Sequence record: PX418922.1
DNA length: 64,000 nt
Direction: 5' to 3' (one strand)
From: a phage
Position 1 is the first letter of the stretch. The number at the start of each line of letters is the position of its first letter. The position numbers and the translations under genes were made by a program. Positions 3,143 to 18,182 of this stretch are shown piece by piece. Under the pieces are notes generated by a model that did not search any database, had not been told where the DNA came from, and worked only from the letters and a program-made list of their open reading frames with translations.

Positions 3143-5644
3143 ATGTCAACTACAATTACTAATTTACCCGAAACATCAAAAGTTAATGGTTCAGATTACC
3201 TGGTTTTAGATCAACCTGATAAAACTGTTAAAAGCACAGTTTCCAACTTTCTTACTGACACTGGGGTGGTTTTAGCCACCCAGTTGAAAGATACAGGTGG
3301 AGCAGATTTAATACAATCCTCAAATGGTAATACTGTTCAGGAAGAGTTGAATAACAATCTTCTTAATGATCGTGAACAGTGGCGTCGTAGTCTTGCTGAA
3401 GCGGGGTTAACACTTGTTGATGGTAGCTTTGAGGAGGGTGCTACATTAAATAATAATACTGATGCTGTTTGGTATATTGCAGGTGGACAGTGCTATACAT
3501 GGGGTGGTGCTTTCCCTAAAGAAGTTCCAGCTGGGTCAACCCCAGAAACATCTGGTGGCGTTGGTTCTGGGGCGTGGGTGAGCGTTGGTGATGCTAATTT
3601 AAGACAGGAATTAGCATCTTCATCTGGGTTTAAATTAATTGGTTCAGTATCTAATGTTACTCAATTAAGAACCATTACCGGTTCTGCTGGAGATAAAATA
3701 TTCCTCAAAGAATATAATACTGGTACCGGGAAAGGTGGGGGAATATTGACTGGTGTTAGCAGTCCGACACTGGTCGATGATGGCGTGAGCTTTTTCAGGG
3801 TTAACTCATCTTTTGGTTGGGCGCGAGATATATCTAAAGGTGTTAGCTTTTTTGATGGTGGTGTTATTGGTGATGCTGTTATTTCTGGTCCAAGTGTAAC
3901 TGGAACAGATGATACTGCCGCGGTTCTTCGCGTTTTTTCTGCCAGATTACCGATTAGGCAGAATACGCCGTTAAAAATGCGTCTAACGTCTTCTGTAACT
4001 TTAGGTAACGGTATTGTTGACTTGGTTGGTGCGGGGTCCACACATGTAGTATTTGTATTTGATCATTTGTCTGCCGGTTTAACTTTTGGCTCTGAGACTA
4101 ATTCGGAAACAAAATACCAGGGAACAGTGAAAGGCGTTTCTTGCGTTCGCCCTAACTACCTTGCATATGCTGGCTCAGCAGGTCCAAAATCTCTCTCATT
4201 TGGTAACTTCTCCCCTATTATTTTAGAAGACGTTAGAGAAGAAAACGCCATAGGATTTGGTATTTTCTTTGTATTCTGCCGGTCGGTCGTGGTTAGGAAA
4301 TGTTACGCCGGTAATCACGTCGGAACTTACTCTACCCCTAAATCTGGAACGGATGGCATCCATTTTTATAAATGTAACGACGTATGGGCCTACGATAATA
4401 TTTTAGAGGAAATCGGTGACGATGCGATATCATCAGGGTCATTTGATCCCCTGTTCCCTTGCTCAAATATAAACTTCATCAGGAATAAGATTTCAAGAGT
4501 GCACGGAAGTATGAAACTTTATAGTTTTGTGGACGGTGCGGAGATAGCCTATAACCGATTCCGCGTAGGTCATGAAGGAGGAGTTTATCTTACAAATGAT
4601 GCTAACTCTCTCGATAACTCTTATGTGAAGAATATAAAAATTCATCACAATGAGTTTTTTGATATTATTGGGAGTGAACCCAGTAATAACACATCTGGTG
4701 GCGTGCGTCTGAGATTCTGGCCTGATAATTCAGTACCAAATTCACGGGCAATTATAGACCAAATCTATATAACAGATAACCTAATTAGTGGCTGTGGCGC
4801 TGGCATTGCGGCAATAACACAGGATGCATACAAAAGATTTTCTAATATGTTCATTCGTAATAACTCGTTTCGTGCGGCACCACTCGATCTAACGGGTAGC
4901 AGGCCTTATATCCGCATACATCAATTTGATTATGAACTTGAGATTAGCGGAAATACAATGGTTAACTCGCATTCAGGGGGTATTGTTATAGATCAGGTCA
5001 ACGGCTCGGTTACCGCCACTTTTACGGCTCCAAAAGCTAAAATCAGCGGTAACACTATCGATGGGTACAGCCTGGCGTCAACGTTGGGCCAACTGGCAAA
5101 CGGTATTCTGGTTAGACCGTCTGATTACAATATCCTCTTAGAGATGGTAGGTAATCAGGTAAGGGGCCAGGCTATTAGTGATACCCTACCAGCAACACAA
5201 GGCATTTTGGTTAACAACGTTAGCCCACTGTCTTTTATTGAAGCAAACCAATCCGATAACAACATTGCTATCGGTGCAGGTTCTGCTGCCTATAAAGGTA
5301 TAGGTAAGACTAAGTTGGGAGCACCGAATGCTGGTACTCACTACGCTGGCAGTACCATTACTGATTATGTTGGTGGGAATCGTTACACTATCCTAACCAA
5401 CGGAACCTTTGGTACATTAAACGGTGTAACAGGTACTACTGTAGCCGGTAGTAAAACAGTTACTCTTAATAGCATAGCTGATGTGTATAGAGGTTGTGTT
5501 ATAGCTATAGCTGGTGTCTCTGGTAACAAACGTGTCTTGGATATACAAGGCACTACTATTAAGGTCGATGTAGCTTGTGACACTTCTGTATCAAACGGTG
5601 CAGTTAGCTACGTTGCCCCTACCTTTAGGACAGAAGCTATGTAA
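3143..5644 (+). CDS. tail fibre / tailspike-like protein
   Basis: 833-aa Gly/Ser/Thr/Asn-rich ORF; carries motif 'WYIAGGQCYTWGGAFPKEVPAGSTPETSGG..AWVSVG' (nt ~3464-3613) shared with two other fibre ORFs. Confidence 0.55.
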   Translation: MSTTITNLPETSKVNGSDYLVLDQPDKTVKSTVSNFLTDTGVVLATQLKDTGGADLIQSSNGNTVQEELNNNLLNDREQWRRSLAEAGLTLVDGSFEEGATLNNNTDAVWYIAGGQCYTWGGAFPKEVPAGSTPETSGGVGSGAWVSVGDANLRQELASSSGFKLIGSVSNVTQLRTITGSAGDKIFLKEYNTGTGKGGGILTGVSSPTLVDDGVSFFRVNSSFGWARDISKGVSFFDGGVIGDAVISGPSVTGTDDTAAVLRVFSARLPIRQNTPLKMRLTSSVTLGNGIVDLVGAGSTHVVFVFDHLSAGLTFGSETNSETKYQGTVKGVSCVRPNYLAYAGSAGPKSLSFGNFSPIILEDVREENAIGFGIFFVFCRSVVVRKCYAGNHVGTYSTPKSGTDGIHFYKCNDVWAYDNILEEIGDDAISSGSFDPLFPCSNINFIRNKISRVHGSMKLYSFVDGAEIAYNRFRVGHEGGVYLTNDANSLDNSYVKNIKIHHNEFFDIIGSEPSNNTSGGVRLRFWPDNSVPNSRAIIDQIYITDNLISGCGAGIAAITQDAYKRFSNMFIRNNSFRAAPLDLTGSRPYIRIHQFDYELEISGNTMVNSHSGGIVIDQVNGSVTATFTAPKAKISGNTIDGYSLASTLGQLANGILVRPSDYNILLEMVGNQVRGQAISDTLPATQGILVNNVSPLSFIEANQSDNNIAIGAGSAAYKGIGKTKLGAPNAGTHYAGSTITDYVGGNRYTILTNGTFGTLNGVTGTTVAGSKTVTLNSIADVYRGCVIAIAGVSGNKRVLDIQGTTIKVDVACDTSVSNGAVSYVAPTFRTEAM

Positions 5645-5696
5645 ACCATAGGCCACGTAAGGTGGCCTATTAAAACTACAACATGAGGATTAACCC

Positions 5697-6002
5697 ATGA
5701 ATAAGATGTTTACCCAGCCAACAGGCTCGGTAGCAAAACAGACTAACAAACAATCCATAGCCCGTCACTTTGGAGTTAAGCAATCCGAGGTTGTTTATTT
5801 CTCAGTTGGTGCTCCGCTTACTGGTTACAAAGCCATTTATGACAAAGAATCGCAGCGTGCTTACTCCTTACCTGCTGATATTGCCCCAGGTACTACTGCC
5901 ATTAGTCTTAGTGCTGCTGTACTTGTGCATTCAGCGGGTTCTGTAGACCTTGGGGAATTAGCTGTATATCGTGATTTAAAAAGTAATGAGAACGCACTAT
6001 GA
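5697..6002 (+). CDS. small fibre-related protein
   Basis: 101-aa ORF; ~50% identical by eye to residues ~228-305 of the 10326-13379 product ('SIARHFGV..LTGYKAIYD..GSVDLGELAV' vs 'TIARKYGL..LTGIKALYD..GSVDLSALAV'). Confidence 0.45.
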   Translation: MNKMFTQPTGSVAKQTNKQSIARHFGVKQSEVVYFSVGAPLTGYKAIYDKESQRAYSLPADIAPGTTAISLSAAVLVHSAGSVDLGELAVYRDLKSNENAL

Positions 6003-6241
6003 GAAAATTTTTAATAGGTATGTTCTGTACATATCCTGATAATAAAGTCAGTTCTACTAAAGTCTGGAACGCTGTAGGCATGTCGGTTATGACAGGCATG
6101 TTTATCTTTTTAGGAATAGAAAAAGAAATTCCTGAATGGATGGGTTGGGCTTTTGTTTTCATGATAACCCCTTCTCGCCTCATGAAAAATCTTATTGATT
6201 TACGCTGGGGCAGATCACAATCTACCAAAGAGGATGACTAA
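5999..6241 (+). CDS. small hydrophobic protein
   Basis: 80-aa ORF with hydrophobic stretch 'VMTGMFIFLGI', ATGA-type overlap with neighbours. Confidence 0.35.
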   Translation: MRKFLIGMFCTYPDNKVSSTKVWNAVGMSVMTGMFIFLGIEKEIPEWMGWAFVFMITPSRLMKNLIDLRWGRSQSTKEDD

Positions 6242-7728
6242 TGGACGAATATGGTTTGACAGATGCGGGATTTGTAATCCCGACTTTTGACGATGTTTTA
6301 AACAACTACATGACAGCAGTAAAAAACACATTTGGTGCAGATGCAGCCACTTCGGAAGATACTGTGATCGGGCAACTGTTTAGAATAATTGCATACACAG
6401 ATTACACATTGTGGGAAGGTATGCAAGGTGTTTATAATACTCAAACACTGGATGGTGCAGAAGGTATTTATCTTGACGAAATCTTTTCTAAACGCGGTTT
6501 CTATCGAGCAGGGGCAGCAGCAAGTACAGGTTATGCATATGTTAAGAGTAATAACAAAGCAGCTTGGACTTATGAGTTAGGCACGGATATTTACTTCAAC
6601 TCTGACAGTGATATGAACTACTATGTTAGCACACCAACTATGTTGAATGCTAAGATTGCAGCTTATCAAATATCTCGTGCTAATGCAACTGCTACAGGTG
6701 TTCCAAATATTACTTTTTATGCACAAAGTGCGGTGGATGGAGGACTAAACAGTAAAACACTTGCACCTGGTTCTTCTACATTTATAACCGATCTTGAAAC
6801 TTTTATCAAGGCAAATTTAACAGAAGCTGATCGTAGTCTCGTATTTTCTGATTCGGGTAACTTATCAGTTGGTTTTACTTCTTTAACCAGTGATACTCCA
6901 GTGGGACTGGTAACTCCTATTAAATTTTATGCTAGTGTTCCGGTTGGAACCAAGTGGAGTGAGATTCCGGTAGTTGCAGCAGAGAAAGGATACAACCCTG
7001 TTGGCGTAGAGTCTATTACAGGGATATCTTCTACCTTTACAGGTTATCTTGACAGTGGTAACTTCTATTCATTTTCTCCTGGTCGGGATGTTGAGACAGA
7101 CGCAGAATTCCGCTCTCGTTTCAATGACAACGTTGATGAAGCTAACGCAGGGACACGAGCAGCTATTGTGAAAGCTCTGCTACTCACAGATGGTGTTACT
7201 AAGGTGAAGATTTATGATAACCCTACATTACATGATCAAGAACATGCTCCAGCTATGACTTTCCAGACTATAGTTTATGGTGGCAGTGCAGAAGAAATTG
7301 CAAATGTTATCTATAAAACCAAACCAATCAACACTTTGACACACGGAACAACTAACATAACAGTTACAACAGAAGACGGAGGACAAGAAATTATTCGCTT
7401 CTCTCCTGGTGCTTCTGCTATGTATTCCGTAAAACTTGTTTATCAAACTGTCAACGGAACAACTTTAAGTGGAACAGAAAAACAAAACATCGTAGAAGCT
7501 CTACAAAACCTGCAAGCTTACTTTGAGTTAGGTTCTTCAGTAACGAACGATCAAATCAAAGGTGTTATTTATGCAGCACTTGCTTTTGGACGCTTGACTT
7601 CTCTTCGTGTTTATGTTAAACTTAATACTGAGGATGACAGTAAATATACAGAGAATAATATAGTTCCTACTTATAATGTTGTCCCTTCTTTTGACCTTGA
7701 TAACATTTCTTACGAGTATGGAGTGTAA
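6241..7728 (+). CDS. baseplate J-like protein
   Basis: 495-aa ORF; position and order (J-like, I-like, fibre, chaperone) resemble P2-type baseplate module; weak similarity to gpJ-family proteins by eye. Confidence 0.5.
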   Translation: MDEYGLTDAGFVIPTFDDVLNNYMTAVKNTFGADAATSEDTVIGQLFRIIAYTDYTLWEGMQGVYNTQTLDGAEGIYLDEIFSKRGFYRAGAAASTGYAYVKSNNKAAWTYELGTDIYFNSDSDMNYYVSTPTMLNAKIAAYQISRANATATGVPNITFYAQSAVDGGLNSKTLAPGSSTFITDLETFIKANLTEADRSLVFSDSGNLSVGFTSLTSDTPVGLVTPIKFYASVPVGTKWSEIPVVAAEKGYNPVGVESITGISSTFTGYLDSGNFYSFSPGRDVETDAEFRSRFNDNVDEANAGTRAAIVKALLLTDGVTKVKIYDNPTLHDQEHAPAMTFQTIVYGGSAEEIANVIYKTKPINTLTHGTTNITVTTEDGGQEIIRFSPGASAMYSVKLVYQTVNGTTLSGTEKQNIVEALQNLQAYFELGSSVTNDQIKGVIYAALAFGRLTSLRVYVKLNTEDDSKYTENNIVPTYNVVPSFDLDNISYEYGV

Positions 7729-7730
7729 AA

Positions 7731-8360
7731 ATGGCAGTGAGTGTTGACCATGTAACAACTTGGGCCAGTATCAATGAAGATGTTAAAAACCTTCTGATTG
7801 AAGATTTTAAATCTTCTCCTAACATTGTCAAGCTCCTCTACATCGTATCCAGTGAAAAGCAAAAGATAGATCAGGCAATGATCTATCTTGCTAAACACCG
7901 CTTGATCTCCACAGCCACAGGCAAATACCTAGATATCTTAGGAGAAGAAATGGGGATCGAACGTAATGGCTCTGATGATGAAGAGTATAGAACAATATTA
8001 AAAATCAGGGCTTACCGCGTAGCCTCATCGGGGACTCGTGGTGACATAATTGATATCTTCGCCCGTTTCACAGGAACAGAGCGTGAAACGCTTAATACTT
8101 ACGTAGGTTTGAATAAAACCTTTGATGTGTTTTTCTACAACCTGTGTCTTCAATCTGATCAAGCTTTAGAGCAGTTGCTAAGTGTTTTCCCTATTATTAG
8201 TAGCTACCGTCTTGGAGCAAAAGCAGGATCAGCTTTTGGTTTTAGTTCTTATTATGCTACCAAACCGCCTCATGGTATTGGTGGTTTAGGTTCCCTGTAC
8301 ATGGAATCTACTGGGGATGAAACAGGACGCATGTGTACGCTTCTCAAGCAAATAGATTAA
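7731..8360 (+). CDS. baseplate / tail-fibre connector protein (gpI-like by position)
   Basis: 209-aa ORF immediately after J-like gene and before a fibre gene. Confidence 0.4.
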   Translation: MAVSVDHVTTWASINEDVKNLLIEDFKSSPNIVKLLYIVSSEKQKIDQAMIYLAKHRLISTATGKYLDILGEEMGIERNGSDDEEYRTILKIRAYRVASSGTRGDIIDIFARFTGTERETLNTYVGLNKTFDVFFYNLCLQSDQALEQLLSVFPIISSYRLGAKAGSAFGFSSYYATKPPHGIGGLGSLYMESTGDETGRMCTLLKQID

Positions 8361-8369
8361 GGAGTTTAA

Positions 8370-9431
8370 ATGGCGAAGCCAATATATTATCCTGACTGGG
8401 CTACACAAACTGTAACGCTCCCAGGAACTTTAAACACAAACAAAATTAGACCTAAAGAAACCATCCGCACAGTTGGTATGGATTATGGTCAAATCATGAC
8501 TTGCGAAGAAATGAACTGGATTCTTAATAATATCGGTTTATGGATTCGCTATTTGGTGGATGACTTTCTTCCAACTTTACCTGATACTTACTTGCCTTTA
8601 GTTGGGACTAAGATTACAATGGCAGGTGATGCTACTGGTGAGGTTACTTGGAATGGTAATAAAGAAGTTACTTTATCTATCCAAGTTCAAGATAACAGCC
8701 ATAATCACTTGTCGGCAAACATTACAGATGCCACTAGTTCAACAGTAACACCAAACGTGTTGGTAAAACGTGATGCGGGTGGTGCTATTTATGGTGGTGA
8801 TGTTTATGTTAACGGTACTTCCACAACAGATCCTGCAACACTGTTTTTCAAAAACTTTGCAGGACAAACTAATGGTGAGATTTCTGCCGAATACCAAAGT
8901 GGAGGTCAGCTTTATATTTATCGTAGAAATCCTAGCACAGGTAATGTATCGGCAGGTGTTCGTTTATATGATGCAGGTTATGTTCTAATAGACAGTCCAA
9001 GATCAAACAGTGGACAAGATACTTCTAACGGAAATGCTTTAGTTCGCTTAGATTATCTGAATTCTCGTTTGACTTCTCTTCAGAACACATTGCAGACGAA
9101 TATTAACACTGTTCAAAACAACCTGAATAGTGTTAACAGCAACCTCTCTTCCCGTATAAACAATGTAGAAAGTAATCATCAAAGTCAGATTACAAACAAC
9201 TACAATTATGCTAACGGAACCTTTGTAAGAGATATTCGTTACACTAGCCAAGGTGTGTATTATCCACCAGGGAACGAAGTTTCTTGGACTTATATCTGTT
9301 CTTCTGGTTATGTTCTTTCTGGTATTATTGTCCAGGAAACAGGGCGTAGTTCTGCGGATAACATCGGTGGGGTTTATTTCAAACGCCTCCAGCGCAACGT
9401 TAACGGAAACTGGTACGATATCGGAGGCTAA
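8370..9431 (+). CDS. tail fibre protein
   Basis: 353-aa ORF with Asn/Ser/Thr-rich heptad-like stretch 'NTLQTNINTVQNNLNSVNSNLSSRINNVESN'. Confidence 0.5.
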   Translation: MAKPIYYPDWATQTVTLPGTLNTNKIRPKETIRTVGMDYGQIMTCEEMNWILNNIGLWIRYLVDDFLPTLPDTYLPLVGTKITMAGDATGEVTWNGNKEVTLSIQVQDNSHNHLSANITDATSSTVTPNVLVKRDAGGAIYGGDVYVNGTSTTDPATLFFKNFAGQTNGEISAEYQSGGQLYIYRRNPSTGNVSAGVRLYDAGYVLIDSPRSNSGQDTSNGNALVRLDYLNSRLTSLQNTLQTNINTVQNNLNSVNSNLSSRINNVESNHQSQITNNYNYANGTFVRDIRYTSQGVYYPPGNEVSWTYICSSGYVLSGIIVQETGRSSADNIGGVYFKRLQRNVNGNWYDIGG

Positions 9432-9977
9432 ATGATATTTACAAATTTTAAAAGATATATTCCCGAAGATCCCGAACTAAAAGAATTGGTAGAAGTAGAG
9501 AACATTCTTTTTCTTCGTTGCGATCAAGGTTACGATTGGTATGATTTACGTAGCACAGAATTCAATAACGATAAAATGAAAGTCGTTTTTGACGATCAAA
9601 ATCGTATTGTGTTTTGGAACACTGATCCTACATTACTTTGCCCTGAAGATCTTTCTATAGCACAAGTGGACTTTAATATAGACACTTTTGAGGATATTAG
9701 AAACAAGGTTCTGGATTTAGAAACTTTGACTCTTAAGGATAAAGAGTATTCCCGTGAAGAGTTGATGACACAAGCTAGTGCAAAAATTCGCTCTTTACAA
9801 GAAACAGCGGTAGCACTTATAACACCTTTACAGTATGCTAAAGATTTAGAAATGGCTACTGAAGATGAATTAGCTTATCTTAAAAATCTTCAAGTTTATG
9901 TGGTTAAACTAAACCGTGTTCCGCTTCAAAAAGACTATCCTTACACTATAGATTGGCCTACATTACCAACGGAATAA
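9432..9977 (+). CDS. tail fibre assembly / chaperone-like protein
   Basis: 181-aa acidic ORF directly downstream of fibre gene (positional inference). Confidence 0.35.
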   Translation: MIFTNFKRYIPEDPELKELVEVENILFLRCDQGYDWYDLRSTEFNNDKMKVVFDDQNRIVFWNTDPTLLCPEDLSIAQVDFNIDTFEDIRNKVLDLETLTLKDKEYSREELMTQASAKIRSLQETAVALITPLQYAKDLEMATEDELAYLKNLQVYVVKLNRVPLQKDYPYTIDWPTLPTE

Positions 9978-9986
9978 GGGATCATT

Positions 9987-10322: not shown

Positions 10323-10325
10323 TTA

Positions 10326-13300
10326 ATGGCAACATTCCCAACGTATCCAGCAACGTCTCTTGAACAGGGCGTAGATCTGGTTATTTTCTCGTCCAATCAA
10401 CTTCATGATGTTATTAATGGAAGTGCGACAGAAAGTATTGAGACAGAATCAGGGTTGATACCAACCCTGAGAAAAGCCCTTGTTGATAACTTTTTCTTTA
10501 AAAGCCCATTGGATTGGGCGCAAGGCACAAATGAAACGGTTTTTAACCAACTACGTTATTTTCAGAATGGGGTATTGAGCGGTTATTATTATGCTCCTAA
10601 TGCTACATTGGTAAACCCAATCCCTATGCAAGGTACTCCAGTAGGAGATAACAACTGGGTATTGTGGGGATTGAAGACAGAACAATTGGCAACAGAAGTC
10701 ACACCTTGGGTATATTCTGGTGCAACTGGTTATGAAACAGTAATCAGTCCTCCTTACATCTTTGATAGTGCTATTGTTACGATCAATGGTGTTATTCAGG
10801 TTCTGGGGGAAGCTTTCCGTATAGAAGATAGTAAGATCATCTTATCTGAACCTTTGGGACACGATCCTGCAACAGGACTGCCAAACAAGCTTTTCGCTTA
10901 TATTGGTAAAATCGTAGCTTCAGCAGATACAGATCCTAATCTAGAGAACCGTCTTGTTAGTTTAGAAACAAAAACGGAAGAACTAACAGAAAGCATAGAT
11001 AAAGTCCCTCTGCAAACTATTGCTCGTAAATATGGTTTGTTAGATGATGAGGTGGCTTACGCAACAGCAGGTCAATCGTTAACAGGGATTAAAGCTCTGT
11101 ATGATCCGGTAGCACAGTCTTCCTACACATTACCTCCTAACATCACAGGAACTTTAACATCTTTGTCTGTTTCTGGAGTAATGACTTATTCTGGAGGGTC
11201 TGTAGATCTTTCTGCACTAGCTGTTGAACGTGGACAGTTTGTCCATTTGCCTACAAGCTTTGGTAATAATGTAACTCTGACAGCTAAAAATCAGACGATT
11301 GGACGTGGTGCTGGTCGTTATCGTTGGGCTGGAAGTTTACCAAAAAGTATTTTGGCCTCTGACACATTAGAGACAAGCGGTGGATTAGGTCCAAACGCAT
11401 GGGTTCTAACTAATACGGAAGGACTGTTAACCCCTCGTGGTGGAACATACAACGATTTATTCGATGTTGTCTACTTGTCAGAATTTGCTAACAATACAAC
11501 TACCTATACCACACCAGAAGCAGCTTTCCAGGCGGCACTGTTAGCAGCAAAAGCTTCGAAAAGTAAGATTCTCGATGCTTACGGTTGCGATATGACTTTC
11601 ACGACAAGCTCTTTTGATATTCAAGGTATCACTTTGCGTGGTGGTGTGTTCCGTGGTCAACGCGACTATCGTGTGCAGAATGCTACAGTAGAAGGCACAA
11701 CTTTCCGTAACTCTCGTGTTATGTATTGGGGTGGTGCTGTGCGCATGTTCGATTGTTTGTGGGACGGTGCTCCTCGCGCAGGTCAAGTTGGTAGCTTGGT
11801 ATTCCAAGGCAACCCAATATCAGGTACTTTTGAAATTGATAATTGTACTTTTAAAAACGGGTTATATGGCATCCTTCAACAAGGGACAGGAGAACCAGTA
11901 ACACGCGGTGTCTTCCGTAACCTTACCTTCATGGACATGCAAGGTGATGCGATAGAACTGAACGTCATCAATAAACATTATGATGATGGTTGTGTGATTG
12001 AGAATATTTACCTGTCTAATATCGATGGGACTAACGCTCCTATTCCTCTGTCCAACTGGGGTATCGGTATCGGTGTAGCTGGTAAAGGACCATATGGTTA
12101 CGGAATCCCTGATGATCAATATTGCAAGAATATTACAATTCGTAACGTTTTTGCAAAACGTTGCCGTCAGATTGTCCACGTAGAAGTTGGTCGTAATATT
12201 TCTATCGAAAACATTCATGGCGATCCAGATCAAACCGTATCTGTTGGGACAGGTTTGGCAACTGGCGCAGTTGTAATGTATGGAAGTAAAGATTTTACGA
12301 TTGACGGTGTTTATGGAGAGCCTAAAACAGACGGTAGCACACTTGCAAGTAATATCCGTATGATTTATTTGGAGTGGGGAACTAACGCAGTTCTGGACGA
12401 AGAGGGTAATCCGGTAGTTCCGGCACAGGGTAGACCTTCAAACCCATGCTTTAACTATTCTGTTCGTAATATTCACACCAAAACTGGGCGTGTTTTTGCA
12501 GGAGTTTCCGCTGGGCCAGGTTATGAAAACAGAGTTAGCTTTGAAAATATTCGTTGCGCTGCATTGCAGTTGTTCGGTATAGCTTCTTGGCTTTCAATGT
12601 CTAACATCACCTGTAATATCTTCGATTGTGTTGGTCAACCTGAATCTGGTCCAGGGACATTTTATGATGGATTCTTCCGTAGAGAAAAATCTGTTCTTGA
12701 AATGGTTAACGTGAACTGTTACCCAGATGGCAAGACGATGGTTACTGGTCGTCCACAGTGGAGCCGTTGCCGTTACTCGGATATTCATCGTGTCAACTGT
12801 AATGTTGAAGCTAATATGTATACCAATATCGCAGGTGGTATTGGAGCTATTGTAGGGACAACGGGCAAAGTTTATTACTTAGAGCCTAATCCTAGTCGAA
12901 ACATTGATGGAATGCATTTCCCAACAGGGAAAGAGTTTGACAAAGGTGATATGATAGTCAAGGCGGATAATACGTTCTTCCTTGTAACAACAAGTGGGGC
13001 ATATATTCCAGATATCCCAGCTTTCGGTATTCGAGCTACACAGGCAGGAGATACCTTCCTGACACAGAACTTGACTCCTAACGGGACAGCAACAAATGCT
13101 TCTTGGTTGTATCATTACCCTCTGTCAGCAGGGACACGTATCCGTATTCCTGGTGCTGGCGTAGGTGGAGCAGATTTGGACACAGTTATTACTCGTGCAC
13201 CTTATCAAGATAATGATACGTGGACTAACCCAGTTAAAATAGACATTGCAGATCCAATTGTAACGCCTACAAGTGCTGGAGTTAGAATTAAAACCATACC

Positions 13301-13379
13301 TAATGATTCCAGTAATGTTTCTGTAGGTAATACTGCGGTTATTCGCCCAACGCCAGTAGTAGATGTGCCAACAACCTAA
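10326..13379 (+). CDS. tail fibre / tailspike-like protein
   Basis: 1017-aa ORF; contains shared fibre motif 'YRWAGSLPKSILASDTLETSGGLGPNAWV' (nt ~11298-11420) and a segment homologous to the 5697-6002 product. Confidence 0.55.
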   Translation: MATFPTYPATSLEQGVDLVIFSSNQLHDVINGSATESIETESGLIPTLRKALVDNFFFKSPLDWAQGTNETVFNQLRYFQNGVLSGYYYAPNATLVNPIPMQGTPVGDNNWVLWGLKTEQLATEVTPWVYSGATGYETVISPPYIFDSAIVTINGVIQVLGEAFRIEDSKIILSEPLGHDPATGLPNKLFAYIGKIVASADTDPNLENRLVSLETKTEELTESIDKVPLQTIARKYGLLDDEVAYATAGQSLTGIKALYDPVAQSSYTLPPNITGTLTSLSVSGVMTYSGGSVDLSALAVERGQFVHLPTSFGNNVTLTAKNQTIGRGAGRYRWAGSLPKSILASDTLETSGGLGPNAWVLTNTEGLLTPRGGTYNDLFDVVYLSEFANNTTTYTTPEAAFQAALLAAKASKSKILDAYGCDMTFTTSSFDIQGITLRGGVFRGQRDYRVQNATVEGTTFRNSRVMYWGGAVRMFDCLWDGAPRAGQVGSLVFQGNPISGTFEIDNCTFKNGLYGILQQGTGEPVTRGVFRNLTFMDMQGDAIELNVINKHYDDGCVIENIYLSNIDGTNAPIPLSNWGIGIGVAGKGPYGYGIPDDQYCKNITIRNVFAKRCRQIVHVEVGRNISIENIHGDPDQTVSVGTGLATGAVVMYGSKDFTIDGVYGEPKTDGSTLASNIRMIYLEWGTNAVLDEEGNPVVPAQGRPSNPCFNYSVRNIHTKTGRVFAGVSAGPGYENRVSFENIRCAALQLFGIASWLSMSNITCNIFDCVGQPESGPGTFYDGFFRREKSVLEMVNVNCYPDGKTMVTGRPQWSRCRYSDIHRVNCNVEANMYTNIAGGIGAIVGTTGKVYYLEPNPSRNIDGMHFPTGKEFDKGDMIVKADNTFFLVTTSGAYIPDIPAFGIRATQAGDTFLTQNLTPNGTATNASWLYHYPLSAGTRIRIPGAGVGGADLDTVITRAPYQDNDTWTNPVKIDIADPIVTPTSAGVRIKTIPNDSSNVSVGNTAVIRPTPVVDVPTT

Positions 13380-13440
13380 TGGAATAGAGGGGGATTCCCC
13401 CTCTTCTTCCAATAGAATGGTCTAATGATAGGAGAGATAA

Positions 13441-15465
13441 ATGAATTTAACAAGACCTAATAGTGCGATAGCCGATCTGGTAGAAGCTACTTATCGAAAA
13501 CGTCGCAGCTTTGAGGCAGGTTTTACATTACGTAATTCCCGTGAAGTTTTGCTGTTAGCAGCAGAAGGGAATTATTACCAATGGAAAGGAACTTTTCCTA
13601 AAGTAGTTCCAGCAAACTCTACGCCAGCCACCACAGGTGGTATTTCTTCCCTTGCATGGCAAAGTGTTGGGACCGCTGATGATATAGCAATTATCAATGC
13701 CAAGTTTACGGCAATGCAGCAACAGATTGATGATCTGTCGGAAACAATACCTGAAGCTGGTAAATCGGCTTATCAGATCGCACTTGATAATGGTTTTGTT
13801 GGAACAGAAGCACAATGGCTTGCTTCTTTGAAAGGGGATACTGGTGCTCAACTTAATATTAAAGGATCATTAGCAAGCACTAGTGAACTACCATCCACAG
13901 GTAACGTTGCAGGGGATGGTTATATCGTAGGTGATGTAATCTACGCTTGGGATGGTTCTGTTTGGAAACTTATTTCTTCTCTTGGACCAGAAGGTAAATC
14001 AGCTTACGAGATATGGTTGGCAGATGGTAATACAGGATCTGTTTATGATTTTCTTACCTCTATAAAAGGTGATAAAGGCGATGTTGGTCCTACAGGGCCA
14101 CAGGGAGCACCTGGTGTTAACGCCAACGGTTTTGATTATCGTGGGGATTTGCCTTCTACAAGTAACTTACCACAACCTAACTCTGAAAACGTAAGCCAAG
14201 CTTATTCTATCAATGGTAATCTTTATGTCTCTAATGGGACAGCTTGGGTCAACATGGGTAATATTGTTGGTCCTCAAGGTCCACAAGGTGAGGCAGGTAA
14301 AGACGGTCTAGATGGAACAGATGGAGATGAAGGGAAATCTGCATATCAAAGTTGGCTGGATGCTGGTAACGAAGGGACAGAAGTAGATTTTATTGCCTCA
14401 CTTAAAGGTCCAAAAGGAGACAAGGGTGATCAAGGAGAGCGAGGTCCACAAGGTGAACTAGGTCCGCAAGGACCAGTGGGTGCAACAGGATCAGGTTTAG
14501 AGATTATCGGGGTTCTGAACAGCGAAGCTGAACTTCCTCCTACTGGAGAAGTAGGTGATGCATATAAAATTAATAATGATTTGTATGTTTGGGTTCAAGA
14601 TGCTACGGAATGGATGAATGTTGGCAGTCTTGGAGGAACATCAATTACAGCTAAAGGGCATGTTCCGAACAGTGAAGCTCTCCCTGTTTACAATAACTAT
14701 GGCGATGCCTACTTAACTGAAGACACCAGTAATCTTTACATCTATACCTACGATCAAGACACCAATTCCGCATCTTTTGTTGACATGGGAAGTATTAAAG
14801 GCGACAAAGGTGAAAAAGGGGATAAAGGAGATAAGGGTGATCCTGGAACAAACGGAACCAACGGTACTAATGGGACCAACGGTAAGGACGGCGCACAGTG
14901 GTTTGTAGCAACAACTAATCCAGTCGCAGGTGATGGTGTTATCAATGATTACGCTTTCAATACTACCACTGGAGCAGTGTTTAAGAAAACAGATTCTTCT
15001 ACATGGACACTTATAGGAACTCTTCCTAGTATACCAGAAGCACCTCAAGACGGCTTGACGTATGGTCGTTCTGATGGGAACTGGATCGAAATATCAGGAT
15101 CAGATCCTACAGAAGCTATAACACCAACTAAAGTTACAGCAGGTTTCATGGAACTTGAAACAACTACTGCCAACTCTGGAGCATCTTGGACTCCTTCTGG
15201 AACTTCCAATATGTATGTTGTTACAGTAACTGACGCTCTGACAGTTGGAGCATGGCCTGGTGTCACTGGCTCTACAAAACCTAAAGCGTTTTCAGCAATG
15301 ATTTATTTGATTCAAGATACAACGGGACACACGGTTACACTAGATGCGTCTTATGGAGCACTAAATGATACAGAAATAGCAACTACTGCTAACGCAGTAA
15401 CAATTTTGCAATTAACGTATCCTGGTGTGGGTAATATCGTGGACATGGTTGTTGTAACACGATAA
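13441..15465 (+). CDS. collagen-like tail fibre protein
   Basis: 674-aa ORF with multiple Gly-X-Y tracts (e.g. 'GPQGPQGEAGKDGLDGTDG', 'GDKGEKGDKGDKGDPGTNGTNGTNGTNGKDG') and shared fibre N-terminal motif 'WKGTFPKVVPANSTPATTGG'. Confidence 0.65.
   Translation: MNLTRPNSAIADLVEATYRKRRSFEAGFTLRNSREVLLLAAEGNYYQWKGTFPKVVPANSTPATTGGISSLAWQSVGTADDIAIINAKFTAMQQQIDDLSETIPEAGKSAYQIALDNGFVGTEAQWLASLKGDTGAQLNIKGSLASTSELPSTGNVAGDGYIVGDVIYAWDGSVWKLISSLGPEGKSAYEIWLADGNTGSVYDFLTSIKGDKGDVGPTGPQGAPGVNANGFDYRGDLPSTSNLPQPNSENVSQAYSINGNLYVSNGTAWVNMGNIVGPQGPQGEAGKDGLDGTDGDEGKSAYQSWLDAGNEGTEVDFIASLKGPKGDKGDQGERGPQGELGPQGPVGATGSGLEIIGVLNSEAELPPTGEVGDAYKINNDLYVWVQDATEWMNVGSLGGTSITAKGHVPNSEALPVYNNYGDAYLTEDTSNLYIYTYDQDTNSASFVDMGSIKGDKGEKGDKGDKGDPGTNGTNGTNGTNGKDGAQWFVATTNPVAGDGVINDYAFNTTTGAVFKKTDSSTWTLIGTLPSIPEAPQDGLTYGRSDGNWIEISGSDPTEAITPTKVTAGFMELETTTANSGASWTPSGTSNMYVVTVTDALTVGAWPGVTGSTKPKAFSAMIYLIQDTTGHTVTLDASYGALNDTEIATTANAVTILQLTYPGVGNIVDMVVVTR
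14845..14880 (+). repeat. in-frame 9-bp (Gly-Thr-Asn)x4 tandem repeat inside collagen-like fibre gene
   Basis: 'ggaacaaac ggaaccaac ggtactaat gggaccaac' read directly. Confidence 0.6.
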
Positions 15466-15466
15466 C

Positions 15467-15494
15467 AGAAGCCCCGAAAGGGGCTTTCTTTTTA
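15467..15494 (+). terminator. rho-independent terminator
   Basis: 'agaagccccgaaaggggcttct' hairpin followed by 'ttttt' immediately after fibre gene stop. Confidence 0.7.
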
Positions 15495-15506
15495 TGGAGG
15501 GTTTAA

Positions 15507-18182
15507 ATGTTTCCAATTCCAATATTTACTATTATGACCAGCACTGGTGTCGTTCCTCTGCCAGCAGGTATTGTTAAAAAAGTAATCACTTTAGATTACC
15601 CAGATAATGCTGGGAATTCTAATAGCAGTTTAGCAATTTTGCTTAATGATGGTAGATTGTTTACTCAAGGCGCAAACCTTTTTGGTGAGATTGCAGATGG
15701 AACTCGTAGTGCACGATTCAATAATTTCCACTTGGCTTCTACTGTAGTAGCGGATGTGTTTACCGCAGATCGTTGTTTTGTTATTAAAACTAACAGTGGA
15801 GGATGGCAATATTCAGGATTGACAGCAGGATTGGTAGGATCTATAGCAGCAGGTGGTACGGACGCATGTGTAACTACTTGGACCAGCTTTCCATCTGTAA
15901 TAACAGGGACTATCTCTTTAGCTAATCTTAAAGAGGTTAAGGGAGGATATAACAACACTCTCTGGTTAATGAATAGTGGTGTTCTTTATGGATCAGGTCA
16001 AAACACAGTAGGCAGTTTAGGTGCAAGTACTACTAACGAAGTTTCTACTCCTCGTCAGATAACAAGTGCAGCAGTTGCTTTTGATGCAGGTTACAACCAA
16101 TGCTCTTATGTCAACAATGTGGGAACCTTGCGTGTTTGTGGAGCTAGTAAAGGTTTAGCAGGTAATAATAACACAACAACAGCTTTTGTCAATGCTAAGA
16201 TATCCGCTACTGAAACAGTGTATGTCAAAGATTACATCAATACAGTTTCCCAGACAATAGTTGTAGGAGATACCTCCGGTGGCACGGGTACAGTAAACTA
16301 CTTATATGTTAGGTCTAATACAGAAACAACCTACACTAAACTGGATACCTTTGCAGCAGGTTTCTCAACATGGAAGTTTCCACCAAGCCGCCACTCTTTT
16401 TTCGTTGGGATCAATAATTCCTTGTGGGCTATTGGTAAGAACTACACTGCAAACTTAGGTTTGGGGTATGATTCTGCGAGCGGAGATCCACTCCAAGTGG
16501 GAAAACCAGTTAAACCTGAAGGAGTGGGTTCTTGGGATATAAACAAGCTCACAAGCGTTCATACGCTGAATATGGATGTTACTAACCAATTAGGTTATCA
16601 AGGAACCTTTTTCGTTTATAATGGAGATATGTATTATTCCGGTATTTGGAAAGATGGGAAAGCCTCGTATCTGTTCAATAGCGGTCTAAACTATAATAAA
16701 TTCACACCAATAGCAAGCTCCGTGATTACGGGTGATATTCTGGCAACTGGCTTAACTACAGATTCTTTAGGAATTTGTATTGTAGGTGGAACTAAACAGT
16801 TGACACATTCTGTTAGCCCAGAAGGAGGTAAACTTTTCAATATTAAATACACTTCTTCTGCCCCTGCAAACATGACAATATCATCTACTGGTTTAATGAC
16901 TTTCCATGCAGAAGGTGGTTTTGATGCAGGTATGACAGCCTTAAACGCTGAAGGAACAACTTTATCAGATACCTCTGGAGGATATGCTTCAACATTGAGT
17001 GTTTACACCCCTAGCTTATCTGCGATGGATGTAGGAACAACACAAACAATGGTAGCAGAAATAACGCCAACAGGAGCAGCAAGCTTACCTGGCATGGTTG
17101 TTGAGTATTTCTCTAATGACCCTACGGTAGCAACAGTTGACCCCGTTACAGGCGTTATTACAGCGGTTGCTGATGGAGGTTGTCGTATCGGTTGTAGAGC
17201 AACTTATCAAGGTGTGGTAACTGCCGAAGATAGTTCTTATCTCACAGTGAATGCTGTGGTGATTGTGATGGATTATGATTTGACGCAAGAAACTATTCCG
17301 GCGGATGTAAAGGTCAACAGGAGTAACCGTTATGCCAGGGCTTCTGGAGATATCCTTGTACCTACAGAGAGTTCTGCTCCCGTAGCACCTTTAGAATATG
17401 TTGGTACAACTCCACAAGGTAGACGTGTTGTAGCAGCCAACCGTACACATATCTTTATCAACAATAACTTGACAACAGCTTCCCCGTGGTTGAAGACGAA
17501 CTTGACAGTCACAGCATCAACAATCAACTCTCCGGTTGGAACTACGGCTAACACTTACAAGTTAACACCTTCTACAACTTCAGGACAACATATTTTATCA
17601 GCAGTGAATACAGCTTCTGATATTACAGCAGGTAAGCACTGGGCGGCATCCGTATTCTTGAAGCCAGATGGGATCACTAAAGTGAAACTCAAATTGACTT
17701 CAGGAGATGAGATTAACGAAGGGACTTATGATCTTGTAGCTGGAACATTTACAGGTGCAGATGCAAACATAATCGATATGGGGAATGGTTGGTATCGTGT
17801 AATTCTACACAAAGTGACAGTTGCCAAACAAGCATCTATAACCTATGAGATTATAGCTTTGAATGCAAGTGGATCAGACACTTTCGCAGGAGATGGTACG
17901 GCAGGTCTTATTGCTTGGGTTCCACAGCTTGAGATGGGGGATATGACAAATCCAGTTTGGGCGGGGACACCATTTGTTTGTTCTTATGCACGAGACACTA
18001 CCAGTGCTGTTACCTTCACTATTCCTAAGAATGGACATACTGGCGTGGACATTTACCACACTGATGGTACTGTGCAACGAGAGGTCTTCACTGGTACAGC
18101 TACAACTTGGATGTTGACGTTCACCGCCGCAAGTGCGGATTGGGGATCGAAGTTCATTACAGGTTTGAAATATTACGACTAA
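15507..18182 (+). CDS. tail fibre protein with Ig-like (Big_2-like) region
   Basis: 891-aa Thr/Ser/Gly-rich ORF; segment '..ATYQGVVTAEDSSYLTVNAVV' resembles bacterial Ig-like domains. Confidence 0.5.
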   Translation: MFPIPIFTIMTSTGVVPLPAGIVKKVITLDYPDNAGNSNSSLAILLNDGRLFTQGANLFGEIADGTRSARFNNFHLASTVVADVFTADRCFVIKTNSGGWQYSGLTAGLVGSIAAGGTDACVTTWTSFPSVITGTISLANLKEVKGGYNNTLWLMNSGVLYGSGQNTVGSLGASTTNEVSTPRQITSAAVAFDAGYNQCSYVNNVGTLRVCGASKGLAGNNNTTTAFVNAKISATETVYVKDYINTVSQTIVVGDTSGGTGTVNYLYVRSNTETTYTKLDTFAAGFSTWKFPPSRHSFFVGINNSLWAIGKNYTANLGLGYDSASGDPLQVGKPVKPEGVGSWDINKLTSVHTLNMDVTNQLGYQGTFFVYNGDMYYSGIWKDGKASYLFNSGLNYNKFTPIASSVITGDILATGLTTDSLGICIVGGTKQLTHSVSPEGGKLFNIKYTSSAPANMTISSTGLMTFHAEGGFDAGMTALNAEGTTLSDTSGGYASTLSVYTPSLSAMDVGTTQTMVAEITPTGAASLPGMVVEYFSNDPTVATVDPVTGVITAVADGGCRIGCRATYQGVVTAEDSSYLTVNAVVIVMDYDLTQETIPADVKVNRSNRYARASGDILVPTESSAPVAPLEYVGTTPQGRRVVAANRTHIFINNNLTTASPWLKTNLTVTASTINSPVGTTANTYKLTPSTTSGQHILSAVNTASDITAGKHWAASVFLKPDGITKVKLKLTSGDEINEGTYDLVAGTFTGADANIIDMGNGWYRVILHKVTVAKQASITYEIIALNASGSDTFAGDGTAGLIAWVPQLEMGDMTNPVWAGTPFVCSYARDTTSAVTFTIPKNGHTGVDIYHTDGTVQREVFTGTATTWMLTFTAASADWGSKFITGLKYYD

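Follow-up and report, generated by a model that had tools for sequence, protein, structure and literature searches.

Multi-spike "Swiss-army-knife" sets are already well known for coliphages of the phAPEC8/phi92 type, and the multivalent adsorption apparatus of phi92, a Justusliebigvirus, was reportedly described by Schwarzer et al. in 2012. By cryo-EM, phi92 virions show three fibre sets at once, with gp145 of the wedge carrying fibres I and III, and the base of fibre I carrying fibre II; no gene product is assigned to fibre II, whose density gp150 and gp151 do not fit (PMC13450770). Co-expressed lateral fibres together with a GpS-like short fibre have been described (PMC8594841), and Pas et al. 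2023 reported recombination motifs flanking the receptor-binding domains across lytic coliphage genera, including Justusliebigvirus (PMC10408124). The principle of cassette exchange is as such already published.

The DNA analyzed here, called the window, is a 64,000-nucleotide stretch of phage record PX418922.1, and all features given below are on the plus strand. The phage is a Phapecoctavirus (Stephanstirmvirinae), i.e. a phAPEC8-like myovirus. The window DNA is approximately 98% identical to known phAPEC8-like phages, and Phapecoctavirus genomes show 97-98% DNA identity across 82-86% of the region studied (3143-18182), with the same flanking gene order. This region is syntenic gene for gene with gp143-gp151 of phi92, the published multivalent adsorption apparatus. 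When 12 proteins from the window were compared with phi92 gp141-gp152 by reciprocal BLASTP, their genes agreed with phi92 in order and strand, and the spike and fibre genes were interleaved with wedge genes in the gp141-gp151 block as they are in phi92. All open reading frames were found at the coordinates given by the first-pass annotation. We therefore regard it as probable that the region is a receptor-recognition gene cluster and the counterpart of the phi92 multivalent adsorption apparatus, with a chimeric first spike and a relic of a second tailspike gene in the form of a 101-aa ORF. Such a cluster decides which bacteria the phage can attack.

Two more fibre candidates lie directly upstream of the region. 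The first (1-972) is cut by the window edge and encodes the C-terminal 323 aa of a tail protein of approximately 958 aa, homologous to phi92 gp141 (84% aa identity to its residues 636-958) and matching phrog_2871, "tail protein", with an E-value of 3e-158; it is a candidate lateral-fibre component. The second (981-3134) is a homologue of phi92 gp142 (77% aa identity) with Calx-beta, NCTSP_N and TIM-barrel domains of the phage N4 tail-appendage type (Pfam PF23845, E 1e-78; PF23844, E 4e-16; PF03160, E 8e-11), and is a candidate glycan-binding or glycan-modifying lateral fibre. The annotation of the preceding gene in phage PaulScherrer is a lateral tail fibre containing glycosidase and deacetylase domains; that gene, partly cut in L014, is probably a homologue of 981-3134.

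The first spike (orf3143, 3143-5644) is a variable tailspike that takes the place of phi92 gp143 (fibre I). Its first 54 residues are 94-98% identical to phi92 gp143 and to the phAPEC8 spike, and in an alignment of nine spikes the N-terminal anchor (aa 1-57, 3143-3313) was kept in all nine, including the endosialidase spikes of phi92 and phAPEC8, making it the universal anchor of the Stephanstirmvirinae spike. Two nested breakpoints follow, the first at aa ~54-57 and the second at aa ~152, and identity to other Phapecoctaviruses ends at nt ~3600. Between them lies a TD2 or Tail_spike_N domain (aa 93-150, 3419-3592; PF18668, E 1e-19) which ends in SVGDANLR and borders the exchangeable cassette on its left side. 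It matches aa 379-455 of G7C gp66 with an E-value of 1.5e-32 (77% DNA identity between the two TD2 domains). The break to foreign sequence falls exactly at the end of TD2.

The remainder of the protein (aa 151-833, 3593-5644) is a receptor-binding module from a Klebsiella-phage type spike family. In a tblastn search only 26 phage records matched this module, 20 of them Klebsiella phages, and in no other member of the Stephanstirmvirinae was it found. It is 87% identical to the Klebsiella siphophages ZC2, 6991 and ZCKP8, which at the DNA level show 87-89% identity overall (phage 6991: 87% over nt 3578-5515), and has 73% protein and 74.6% DNA identity to gp89 of the Gamaleyavirus Mimir124. The module has no Pfam match and cannot be assigned to an enzyme family, and the exact spike protein was not found in a collection of 15 billion proteins. 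The first spike is thus a three-part chimera, in which a subfamily-specific anchor (aa 1-57) is followed by a linker and TD2 of the G7C gp66 type up to aa ~152, and then by the Klebsiella-phage type module (aa 151-833). The presence of this module on an E. coli-phage chassis adds another case of cassette traffic, here involving a myovirus, siphoviruses and N4-like podoviruses.

The TD2 domain also explains a motif of approximately 40 residues that had been noticed in three fibre or spike proteins. The motif is found at aa 118-145 of the first spike (YTWGGAFPKEVPAGSTPETSGGVGSGAW), at aa 332-359 of the 1017-aa spike and at aa 45-72 of the collagen-like fibre, and it corresponds to Pfam PF18668; the bit scores of 70.7, 37.6 and 70.5, respectively, all pass the curated gathering threshold of 25 bits. 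By BLASTP, aa 95-152 of the first spike are 53% identical to aa 23-80 of the collagen-like fibre (E 3e-12), and the corresponding comparison with the 1017-aa spike gives an E-value of 1e-5. Smith-Waterman z-scores computed against 1000 shuffles were 27.4, 14.4 and 10.1, with the observed score reached by no shuffle, so that the shared segments are all far beyond chance similarity. The shared motifs are clearly TD1 and TD2, two docking or neck domains already catalogued from tailspike heads; in a spike, they have the virion-attaching part on one side and the receptor-binding part on the other.

The 1017-aa spike (orf10326, 10326-13379), placed by PDB homology and located at the position of the colanidase gp150, carries both neck domains. 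Its order is an N-terminal anchor (aa 11-127, matching 9cuy_g with E 3e-19), a weak gp10-like segment (aa 122-178), TD1 (aa 230-302, nt 11013-11231), TD2 (aa 302-361, nt 11229-11408) and a beta-helix (aa 426-1000), i.e. TD1, TD2 and a receptor-binding domain in one chain with TD1 internal. The TD1-TD2 part matches 4qnl, 6nw9 and 4oj5 with E-values between 1e-28 and 1e-30, and the beta-helix matches phi92 gp150 (6e0v, E 1e-79). Matches to the gp10-like segment are weak, both in the PDB (7y22_e, E 4e-4; 9k4a, 0.008; 23sh_r "tail fiber gp9", 0.02; CBA120 TSP2 6w4q, 0.06) and in the comparison with segments of G7C gp66 (domain E-values 0.2-0.4). Residues 1-215 are 75% identical to phi92 gp150, which has no TD1-TD2 neck. 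Degradation of colanic acid has been reported for phi92 gp150 only; since the beta-helix of our protein is only 33% identical to that of the phi92 colanidase, its substrate may differ.

The collagen-like fibre (orf13441, 13441-15465) is a homologue of phi92 gp151 (60% identity), has its TD2 at the extreme N-terminus (aa 12-77, nt 13474-13671; PF18668, E 1e-19), contains four G-X-Y runs (PF01391, E 3e-12) and ends in a C-terminal domain matching phrog_4549. Both internal repeat families proposed earlier were recovered: three GKSAY units start at aa 107, 185 and 298 (pairwise z 13-20), and four beta-rich modules of approximately 50 aa each occupy aa 137-184, 228-279, 352-400 and 401-456 (pairwise z 4.7-13.8). 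A pattern scan found an intrinsic-terminator-like hairpin 3' of the gene (15468-15487), at the same place where phAPEC8 has an annotated terminator.

The 101-aa ORF (5697-6002) is a free-standing TD1 domain at the right border of the cassette. It had been called homologous to an internal segment of the 1017-aa protein, and this holds: its aa 19-92 align with aa 230-302 of that spike with 47% identity (E 1e-17, z = 25). Still closer matches are found in the PDB with residues 1-95 of CBA120 TSP1 (4oj5, E 2e-36), G7C gp63.1 (4qnl, E 5e-35) and 6nw9 (E 3e-31), in all cases covering TD1 only. The alignments stop at query residue 92-94 or earlier in all 150 representative matches listed, and most of the homologues among them are proteins of approximately 500-900 aa with TD1 at residues 1-95. 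Homology thus extends to residue 93, which is the TD1/TD2 boundary, and the frame ends 8 codons past it; the ORF does not head a complete tailspike with TD1, TD2 and a receptor-binding domain in one chain. While the homology and the truncation are plain, the most likely interpretation is that the ORF is a recombination relic, the leftover head of a lost tailspike gene. It would be the beheaded 5' end of a gene of the gp63.1 type, which follows gp66 in Gamaleyaviruses and resembles Kuttervirus TSP1/TSP3. Its stop codon and the start codon of the next gene share bases (ATGA), and the ORF is probably translated only as a leader into the membrane-protein gene; a structural role would not be expected.

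Relatives also bear on this interpretation. The ORF is absent from phi92 and phAPEC8, variants of 49, 64, 67, 92 and 116 aa occur, those of W22 and ECGD1 being internally deleted copies of 49 aa, and in L018 the homologue is fused to an unrelated N-terminus. In our phage it is a mosaic with three discordant similarity segments within 303 nt. In its fixed part, 9 variant codons are nonsynonymous and 1 is synonymous, including R to C/W and L to P changes; with 10 variant codons only, all from the 3' 40 codons, the ratio fits neutrality (p = 0.3) and rejects omega <= 0.3 (P < 0.005). The adjacent membrane-protein gene shows purifying selection (7 nonsynonymous to 13 synonymous changes). Counter to a relic, most genomes seen have an intact ORF of 101-103 aa, its SD sequence is good, and in two of the deletions the frame is kept.

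A functional TD1 protein, either a small virion or assembly protein (for example a cap or adaptor in the TD1-docking, gp10-like/XD site of the 1017-aa spike) or an acceptor for capturing tailspike genes, is nevertheless unlikely in our judgment. It would fit with the intact length in many Stephanstirmvirinae of both genera, with the strong SD sequence and the ATGA overlap, with TD1 being a module that docks on XD3 in Ackermannviridae (PMC11414711), and with the domain order of the 1017-aa spike, which is the same as in G7C gp66 plus the gp10-like segment. However, phi92 and phAPEC8 do without the ORF, the 49-aa version of W22 and ECGD1 cannot fold as TD1, the L018 copy has its foreign N-terminus, nine of ten variant codons are nonsynonymous, and the gp10-like matches are weak (E 4e-4 to 0.4). 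About equally doubtful is a related proposal, in which the mini-gene is maintained as a "landing pad", the right-hand homology arm for capturing foreign receptor-binding cassettes. As a translated leader it could have its 5' two-thirds continually overwritten by recombination with the tailspike genes of co-infecting Kuttervirus or Gamaleyavirus phages, and its product might still occupy the TD1-docking site on the 1017-aa spike. If true, the mini-gene would be a device for evolvability, kept by selection, through which host range changes across phage families.

Returning to the relic as the preferred explanation, its position coincides with the borders seen in DNA comparisons. In all comparisons with Phapecoctaviruses, similarity breaks off at nt 3594-3604 and resumes at nt 5670-5742 (phAPEC8: 6004). 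The stretch from nt 5099 to 5762 is 90% identical to Mimir124 and runs from the end of gp89 through the intergenic spacer into gp88, of which it includes the first 22 codons. In five other Stephanstirmvirinae the TD2...TD1 units are colinear with the gp66/gp63.1 junction of G7C and with a Kuttervirus tsp gene, at 72-93% DNA identity. The breakpoints and the cross-family DNA identity of the TD domains are thus directly visible. Just 3' of the spike stop codon we read a 9-bp hairpin without a U-run (5648-5670), followed by the SD sequence GAGGA; relatives have a GC-rich terminator hairpin at this position, known as "motif three" among the conserved recombination motifs previously published for cassette-border positions (PMC10408124). 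The TD domains are conserved at the DNA level across Stephanstirmvirinae, Kuttervirus and Gamaleyavirus, which are unrelated but share hosts, and this suggests that TD1 and TD2 act as crossover points for swapping receptor-binding cassettes. The relic would mark the right edge of the cassette and offer homology for further exchange.

Three TD2 and two TD1 copies inside 10 kb, with 43-55% aa identity, could also have come from recent duplication inside the genome, i.e. true paralogy with fibres borrowing domains from each other, but we find this very improbable. No direct repeats at the DNA level link the TD copies, the identity of the 101-aa ORF is 75-79% with spikes of Kuttervirus and G7C but only 47% with the 1017-aa spike, and TD2 of the first spike is nearer to G7C gp66 (E 1.5e-32) than to its partners in its own genome. 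Furthermore, phi92 gp151 already has TD2 and phi92 gp150 is without the TD1-TD2 block, and the copies therefore have separate histories. Since each shared copy is nearer to tailspikes of other families and DNA repeats are missing, the shuffling is mainly horizontal. The domain shuffling proposed in the first-pass annotation is accordingly retained for a modular locus with shuffled receptor-binding parts, except that it took place mainly between phages and not within the genome. The cluster has further allelic parts, namely the tip of the short fibre together with the chaperone, and the last third of orf15507.

The remaining genes of the cluster also have phi92 counterparts. A small membrane protein (5999-6241) is a homologue of phi92 gp144 (81% aa identity, phrog_1322), and the baseplate wedge proteins (6241-8360; Baseplate_J) are homologues of gp145 and gp146 (80% and 87% aa identity). 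The short tail fibre (8370-9431; phrog_4465) corresponds to phi92 gp147 (fibre III) and is Mu GpS-like; it is 75% identical to gp147 over aa 1-267 only, the tip beyond aa ~273 is allelic, and similarity to phage ukendt ends at nt 9190. The tail-fibre assembly chaperone (9432-9977; PF02413 Caudo_TAP, E 3e-13) co-varies with the fibre tip and has only 24% identity to phi92 gp148. It is followed by a small conserved homologue of gp149, annotated as a lipoprotein (9987-10322; 76% identity, phrog_15210).

The last gene (orf15507, 15507-18182) encodes an 891-aa tail protein which starts with an RCC1-type propeller (aa ~20-400), continues with two Ig domains (aa ~410-583) and has an allelic last third (aa ~588-891). 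Pfam reported WD40_RLD and Big_2, pLDDT in the AF2 model exceeded 85 for the propeller and the Ig domains but fell under 50 for aa 584-692, and the best Foldseek matches were the UVR8 and RCC1 propellers (E 3e-15). Homologues have only the first 66% in common, and the Ig part is 62% identical to phi92 gp152. The protein resembles an adhesin more than a fibre or spike, and of the at least five fibre or spike-like proteins counted earlier, the first spike, the short fibre, the 1017-aa spike and the collagen-like fibre are the clear cases. A strong terminator hairpin with a 12-bp stem and a T-run (18186-18213) closes the cluster at a strand switch, where the sign of the GC skew flips.

From phi92 and from the BASEL work we infer the virion location, co-expression and enzyme specificities of these proteins. 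Several trimeric spikes and fibres together with the propeller/Ig protein would be made together and mounted simultaneously on the baseplate wedge, giving each virion several glycan-binding or glycan-degrading tools, and the short fibre of the Mu GpS type would make the terminal LPS contact. The shared orientation and tight packing of the genes suggest that they are co-expressed; the orientation and the small number of terminators would also be compatible with simultaneous display of the fibre sets. A broad host range, as had been proposed, is plausible only by analogy with phi92 and the BASEL phages (PMC13450770, PMC8594841). The proposed switchable host range is not borne out, with no invertible segment, flanking inverted repeat, invertase or reverse transcriptase in the cluster. 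It is true that several alternative receptor-binding proteins are encoded and that the short fibre and chaperone are homologous to the Mu S and U genes, which inversion switches in Mu. A host-range switch selecting alternative fibres per virion by inversion, phase variation or diversity-generating retroelements is nonetheless extremely improbable: the fibre genes are without flanking inverted repeats (the best pairs being 22-29 nt with 72-79% complementarity), all cluster genes share a strand, neighbours overlap or are 1-60 nt apart, only two terminator-like sites occur, every cluster gene (the 101-aa ORF aside) has a phi92 counterpart, none of these counterparts being a recombinase or reverse transcriptase, and phi92 virions carry three fibre sets simultaneously.

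For host-range engineering of therapeutic phages of the phi92/phAPEC8 type, the domain map is useful in that it gives sites in the first spike, after aa ~57 or aa ~152, where modules can be swapped without disturbing virion attachment, with the TD1 relic as the right edge.

Compared with phi92 and its relatives phAPEC8, rV5 and PVP-SE1, the locus has the same gp141-gp152 order with 60-87% aa identity in conserved parts, and shares the gp143-type anchor, the wedge proteins, the gp147 short fibre with its chaperone, the gp150-type beta-helix spike and the gp151-type collagen-like fibre with N-terminal TD2. It differs in that the first spike carries a Klebsiella-phage type module where phi92 has an endosialidase, that the first spike is followed by a TD1 relic absent from phi92, that the gp150 homologue has an extra TD1-TD2 neck, and that gp152 is 202 aa in phi92 whereas the propeller/Ig protein here is 891 aa.

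The branched complex of Ackermannviridae (CBA120 TSP1-4; PDB 4oj5, 5w6f, 5w6h, 6w4q) is built with the same two domains, TD1 and TD2; residues 1-95 of CBA120 TSP1 are approximately 75% identical to the 101-aa ORF, and in the 1017-aa spike the anchor, gp10-like segment, TD1, TD2 and beta-helix follow each other in a TSP2/TSP4-like order. In contrast to the branched complexes of Ackermannviridae and Gamaleyavirus, our locus has no second full-length TD1-headed spike, the sole free TD1 being the 101-aa relic. Unlike in Ackermannviridae, the XD domains are at best weakly detectable, and phi92 fibres attach to a wedge protein and not to a single TSP4 hub. In the Gamaleyaviruses G7C and Mimir124, gp66 and gp63.1 form a two-protein adhesin, and the junction from gp66 to gp63.1 is colinear with the unit of TD2, receptor-binding module, spacer and TD1 head (72-93% DNA identity to G7C across the subfamily, 90% to Mimir124 at nt 5099-5762), whereas here the second gene is cut after TD1, the anchor is of the Stephanstirmvirinae type and the virion is that of a myovirus with further fibres. 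In agreement with the recombination motifs of Pas et al., a hairpin lies 3' of the spike gene where motif three would be placed. The word "truncated" has 0 occurrences in the text of that paper (PMC10408124), and a right-hand homology block in the form of the TD1 relic seems to be a detail that we add to its scheme, here extended to Phapecoctavirus.

The fibre and spike gene cluster at nt 3143-18182 shows 97-98% DNA identity to many Phapecoctavirus genomes across 82-86% of the region, and judged from its sequence the phage is a phAPEC8-like myovirus of the genus Phapecoctavirus, subfamily Stephanstirmvirinae. The gene order is equal in the annotated loci of Ro121c4YLVW and phAPEC8, and the counterparts in phage phi92 could be matched gene for gene by BLASTP. 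With ORFs named after their first nucleotide and amino acid identities given in brackets, orf1-972 corresponds to gp141 (84%), orf981 to gp142 (77%), orf3143 to gp143 (match limited to the first 54 aa), the membrane-protein gene orf5999 to gp144 (81%), orf6241 and orf7731 to the wedge proteins gp145 (80%) and gp146 (87%), orf8370 to gp147 (75% over aa 1-267), orf9432 to gp148 (24%), orf9987 to gp149 (76%), orf10326 to gp150 (75% at the N-terminus, 33% in the beta-helix), orf13441 to gp151 (60%) and orf15507 to gp152 (62%, middle part only). By these matches the region is the cluster known in the literature as the multivalent adsorption apparatus or “nanosized Swiss army knife”.

Each item that the first-pass annotation had noticed in this cluster was recovered at its place. 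The 40-aa motif lies in orf3143 aa 118-145, orf10326 aa 332-359 and orf13441 aa 45-72 (BLASTP E 3e-12 and 1e-5; Smith-Waterman z 10-27, with 0 of 1000 shuffles as high as the observed score), and all three regions pass the Pfam gathering score of PF18668 (Tail_spike_N). The 101-aa orf5697 (nt 5697-6002) aligns with orf10326 aa 230-302 with 47% identity (E 1e-17, z = 25). That these similarities arose by chance was rejected by the shuffle tests and by the Pfam thresholds. By homology, the 40-aa motif is TD2 and orf5697 is TD1 of the two-domain tailspike head known from Kuttervirus CBA120 TSP1, TSP3 and TSP4 and from G7C gp63.1. In the Ackermannviridae a spike attaches through TD1 to the gp10-like domain XD3 of its partner (PMC11414711). 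The domain shuffling that had been proposed is real, but it is mainly horizontal: DNA repeats are absent and the nearer relatives of the copies are in other phage families, which speaks against within-genome paralogy and led us to reject a recent intragenomic duplication.

It is clear from the DNA comparisons that the first spike gene, orf3143, is a chimera. Its anchor (aa 1-57) is universal and common even to the endosialidase spikes of phi92 and phAPEC8, aa 58-152 comprise a linker and TD2 in common with Ro121c4YLVW, KKP 3954 and ECGD1, and aa 151-833 form the receptor-binding module. DNA similarity to six other Phapecoctaviruses ends between nt 3509 and 3604, for five of them within 3594-3604, and returns at nt 5670-5742; against phAPEC8 it ends at nt 3303 and returns at nt 6004. 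Between these breakpoints, nt 3578-5515 are 87-89% identical in DNA to the spike gene of the ~48-kb Klebsiella phages 6991, ZCKP8, ZC2 and ZCKp20p, and the module is 74.6% identical to gp89 of the Gamaleyavirus Mimir124. At the protein level the module was found in 26 of 50,697 phage records, 20 of them Klebsiella phages and none another member of the Stephanstirmvirinae, and the exact orf3143 protein had no copy in a collection of 15 billion proteins. The right-hand part, nt 5099-5762, is 90% identical to Mimir124, from the final part of gp89 through the spacer to codon 22 of gp88, a gp63.1 homologue that docks on gp89 (PMC11640937). In five other Stephanstirmvirinae the TD2...TD1 units are colinear with G7C gp66 TD2 plus the gp66/gp63.1 junction (72-93% DNA identity); a Kuttervirus tsp gene, together with the spacers on either side of it, could be aligned with them as well. 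Receptor-binding genes of Gamaleya-, Kutter- and Justusliebigviruses share conserved DNA motifs, at the anchor end and at the terminator downstream, which have earlier been proposed as recombination hotspots (PMC10408124).

Most of the receptor-binding modules (nt 3601-6000 and 10800-18000) have a G+C content of 0.41-0.44. In the tail genes upstream and in the block of wedge and short-fibre genes it is 0.35-0.41, for the most part under 0.39, a contrast compatible with a foreign origin of the modules.

At the right-hand border of the cassette lies orf5697. It matches PDB 4oj5 residues 1-95 with ~75% identity (E 2e-36), 4qnl with E 5e-35 and 6nw9 with E 3e-31. A word-indexed search yielded 27 matches, short proteins only, and the full-length spikes were seen by an exhaustive HMMER search of 1.84 billion representative proteins. 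This gave 218 homologues, nearly all proteins of 500-900 aa matching at residues 1-95 and a few internally. Among the 150 matches listed, every alignment stops at orf5697 residue 92-94 or earlier, and therefore orf5697 is a tailspike head cut off exactly where TD1 gives way to TD2; the final 8 codons (DLKSNENAL) show no relation to the spike head.

Many Stephanstirmvirinae from both genera, Ro121c4YLVW and PaulScherrer among them, carry an orf5697 of 101-103 aa, which without exception follows the first spike and precedes the membrane-protein gene. It is absent from phi92 and phAPEC8, which carry endosialidase cassettes, and occurs as a 49-aa version with an in-frame 52-codon deletion in W22 and ECGD1 and as versions of 64, 67 and 92 aa elsewhere. 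In one Phapecoctavirus (locus L018, 5001-5351) an unrelated N-terminus is in frame with the fixed last ~45 codons, giving a 116-aa ORF; the N-terminus of this form, seen on 10 contigs, is coiled-coil-like. No full-length second spike was found behind the first in ten Stephanstirmvirinae loci, which had only a relic (about 101, 49 or 116 aa) or nothing. A 165-aa TD1 plus TD2 ORF (P0036) was rejected as a member of the subfamily since it sits in an Ackermannviridae-like tsp cluster. Such a 165-aa ORF of TD1 and TD2 only precedes three full tailspike genes on an Ackermannviridae-like contig (L016 6001-6498, L017 557-1054), and the occurrence of truncated spike heads therefore extends beyond the Stephanstirmvirinae.

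At the DNA level orf5697 consists of three segments with discordant relatives. Codons 1-20 are closest to KKP 3954 (88%) and Mimir124 gp88 (83%), with 55-58% identity to the Ro121 type, and codons 21-59 to ukendt (86%) and G7C gp63.1 (84%), with lower identity elsewhere. Codons 60-101 are at least 97% identical in 8 of 9 Stephanstirmvirinae copies scored (anhysbys 91%) and 80% identical to a Kuttervirus spike; they are near-identical also in the 49-aa copies of W22 and ECGD1, although the two genera are only ~77% identical in the genes on either side. In the fixed stretch of 40 codons, 10 vary and 9 of these are nonsynonymous, including R to C or W, S to Y and L to P; the adjacent membrane-protein gene has 7 nonsynonymous and 13 synonymous changes. 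In this small sample neutrality fits the fixed part (p = 0.3) and omega <= 0.3 is rejected (P < 0.005). We interpret orf5697 as a relic of recombination which moves along with the cassette and would provide homology for crossovers. Its SD sequence (GAGGA) is good and its stop codon overlaps the start codon downstream (ATGA); its translation probably serves only as a leader. Because the sample behind the selection test is small, some weight is left for a functional mini-protein, which we nevertheless consider unlikely. The relic as right-hand border of the cassette is the sole detail that was not found in the literature consulted.

The first ~70 nt of the membrane-protein gene (nt 5999-6070) are near-identical between Phapecoctavirus and Justusliebigvirus (loci L005 and L006), the remainder is ~77% identical, and the 5' end differs in phAPEC8; cassette exchanges therefore sometimes extend into this gene.

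Other allelic parts are the tip of the short fibre, together with its chaperone, and the C-terminal third of orf15507. The genes orf8370 and orf9432 encode a short fibre of the Mu GpS/GpU type and its chaperone. A second exchangeable cassette at nt 9190-9977 comprises the tip beyond aa ~273 and the chaperone, and the similarity of phage ukendt to the short fibre ends at nt 9190. The first-pass count of five fibre or spike-like proteins is slightly generous for orf15507, which has an RCC1-type propeller, two Ig domains and a variable C-terminal third. In the AF2 model propeller and Ig domains are resolved confidently and the last third with low confidence, and Foldseek returned RCC1-type propellers only. 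This third (aa ~588-891; nt 17268-18182) is allelic: the protein of phage tuntematon is 98% identical over the first 66% only, and other alleles carry PF03382, PF22359 or PF26918 domains. No Pfam match even at E <= 1 was obtained for the orf3143 receptor-binding module or the C-terminal domains of orf13441 and orf15507.

In orf13441 TD2 stands at the extreme N-terminus, as in phi92 gp151, followed by repeats, namely three GKSAY units (z 13-20) and four beta-rich modules each ~50 aa long (z 4.7-13.8), and by four collagen G-X-Y runs. PHROG 4549 unites its C-terminal domain with the N-terminal domain of orf10326 in one family. The latter domain matches the baseplate-bound tail fibre 9cuy_g (E 3e-19) and is followed by a weak gp10-like match (aa 122-178; E 4e-4 to 0.06), a coiled-coil-like linker, TD1, TD2 (aa 226-399 against 4oj5, 4qnl and 6nw9, E 1e-28 to 1e-30) and the beta-helix (aa 426-1000 against the phi92 gp150 crystal structure 6e0v, E 1e-79). 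Since this catalytic beta-helix and the characterised colanidase have only 33% identity, the label “colanic acid degradation” may fail for the orf10326 allele.

Just upstream of the cluster, orf1-972 and orf981 are two further fibre or spike candidates. The latter (nt 981-3134, plus strand) encodes a 717-aa protein with Calx-beta, NCTSP_N and TIM-barrel_NCTSP domains of the phage N4 tail-appendage type, a further receptor-binding candidate and a link between this myovirus and Schitoviridae appendages. At the other end, GC-skew sign and coding strand switch at ~18.2 kb, with a strong hairpin terminator at 18186-18213, and again at ~53-54 kb; both switches are module boundaries of the phage genome. 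The 267-aa TTG-start ORF at 18198-19001 (plus strand) has a low-complexity, Phe/Ile/Asn-rich translation, overlaps the minus-strand gene 18246-19133 (conserved hypothetical in phAPEC8) and is almost certainly not a gene.

The cluster genes are co-oriented with only two terminator-like sites. By analogy with work on phi92, BASEL, CBA120 and G7C, all receptor-binding proteins would be produced together and carried either by the wedge or by one another; our literature search found no usable virion proteomics of Phapecoctaviruses. The spikes would bind or degrade surface glycans, orf3143 presumably a capsule-like polysaccharide, orf10326 a colanic-acid-like polymer and the gp142 homologue possibly ECA, and the short fibre would then touch the LPS core and by its rearrangement set off contraction. 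TD1 and TD2 would have a structural part as necks or docking modules and would also be the junctions at which recombination takes place. A broad host range can be suggested by analogy only, and the switchable host range of the first-pass annotation found no support, as a search of the cluster for invertible or switching systems gave no signals.

The apparatus belongs to a well-described kind. The domain order of orf10326 equals that of G7C gp66 and CBA120 TSP2 and TSP4, whereas phi92 gp150 lacks the TD1-TD2 block and has a different ~90-aa segment there; the neck region missing from gp150 corresponds to orf10326 aa ~216-454 (nt 10970-11600). On the phi92 baseplate three co-expressed fibre sets have been seen, where the wedge protein gp145 bears fibre I (gp143) and fibre III (gp147), and fibre II is attached to the base of fibre I (PMC13450770; PMC8594841).
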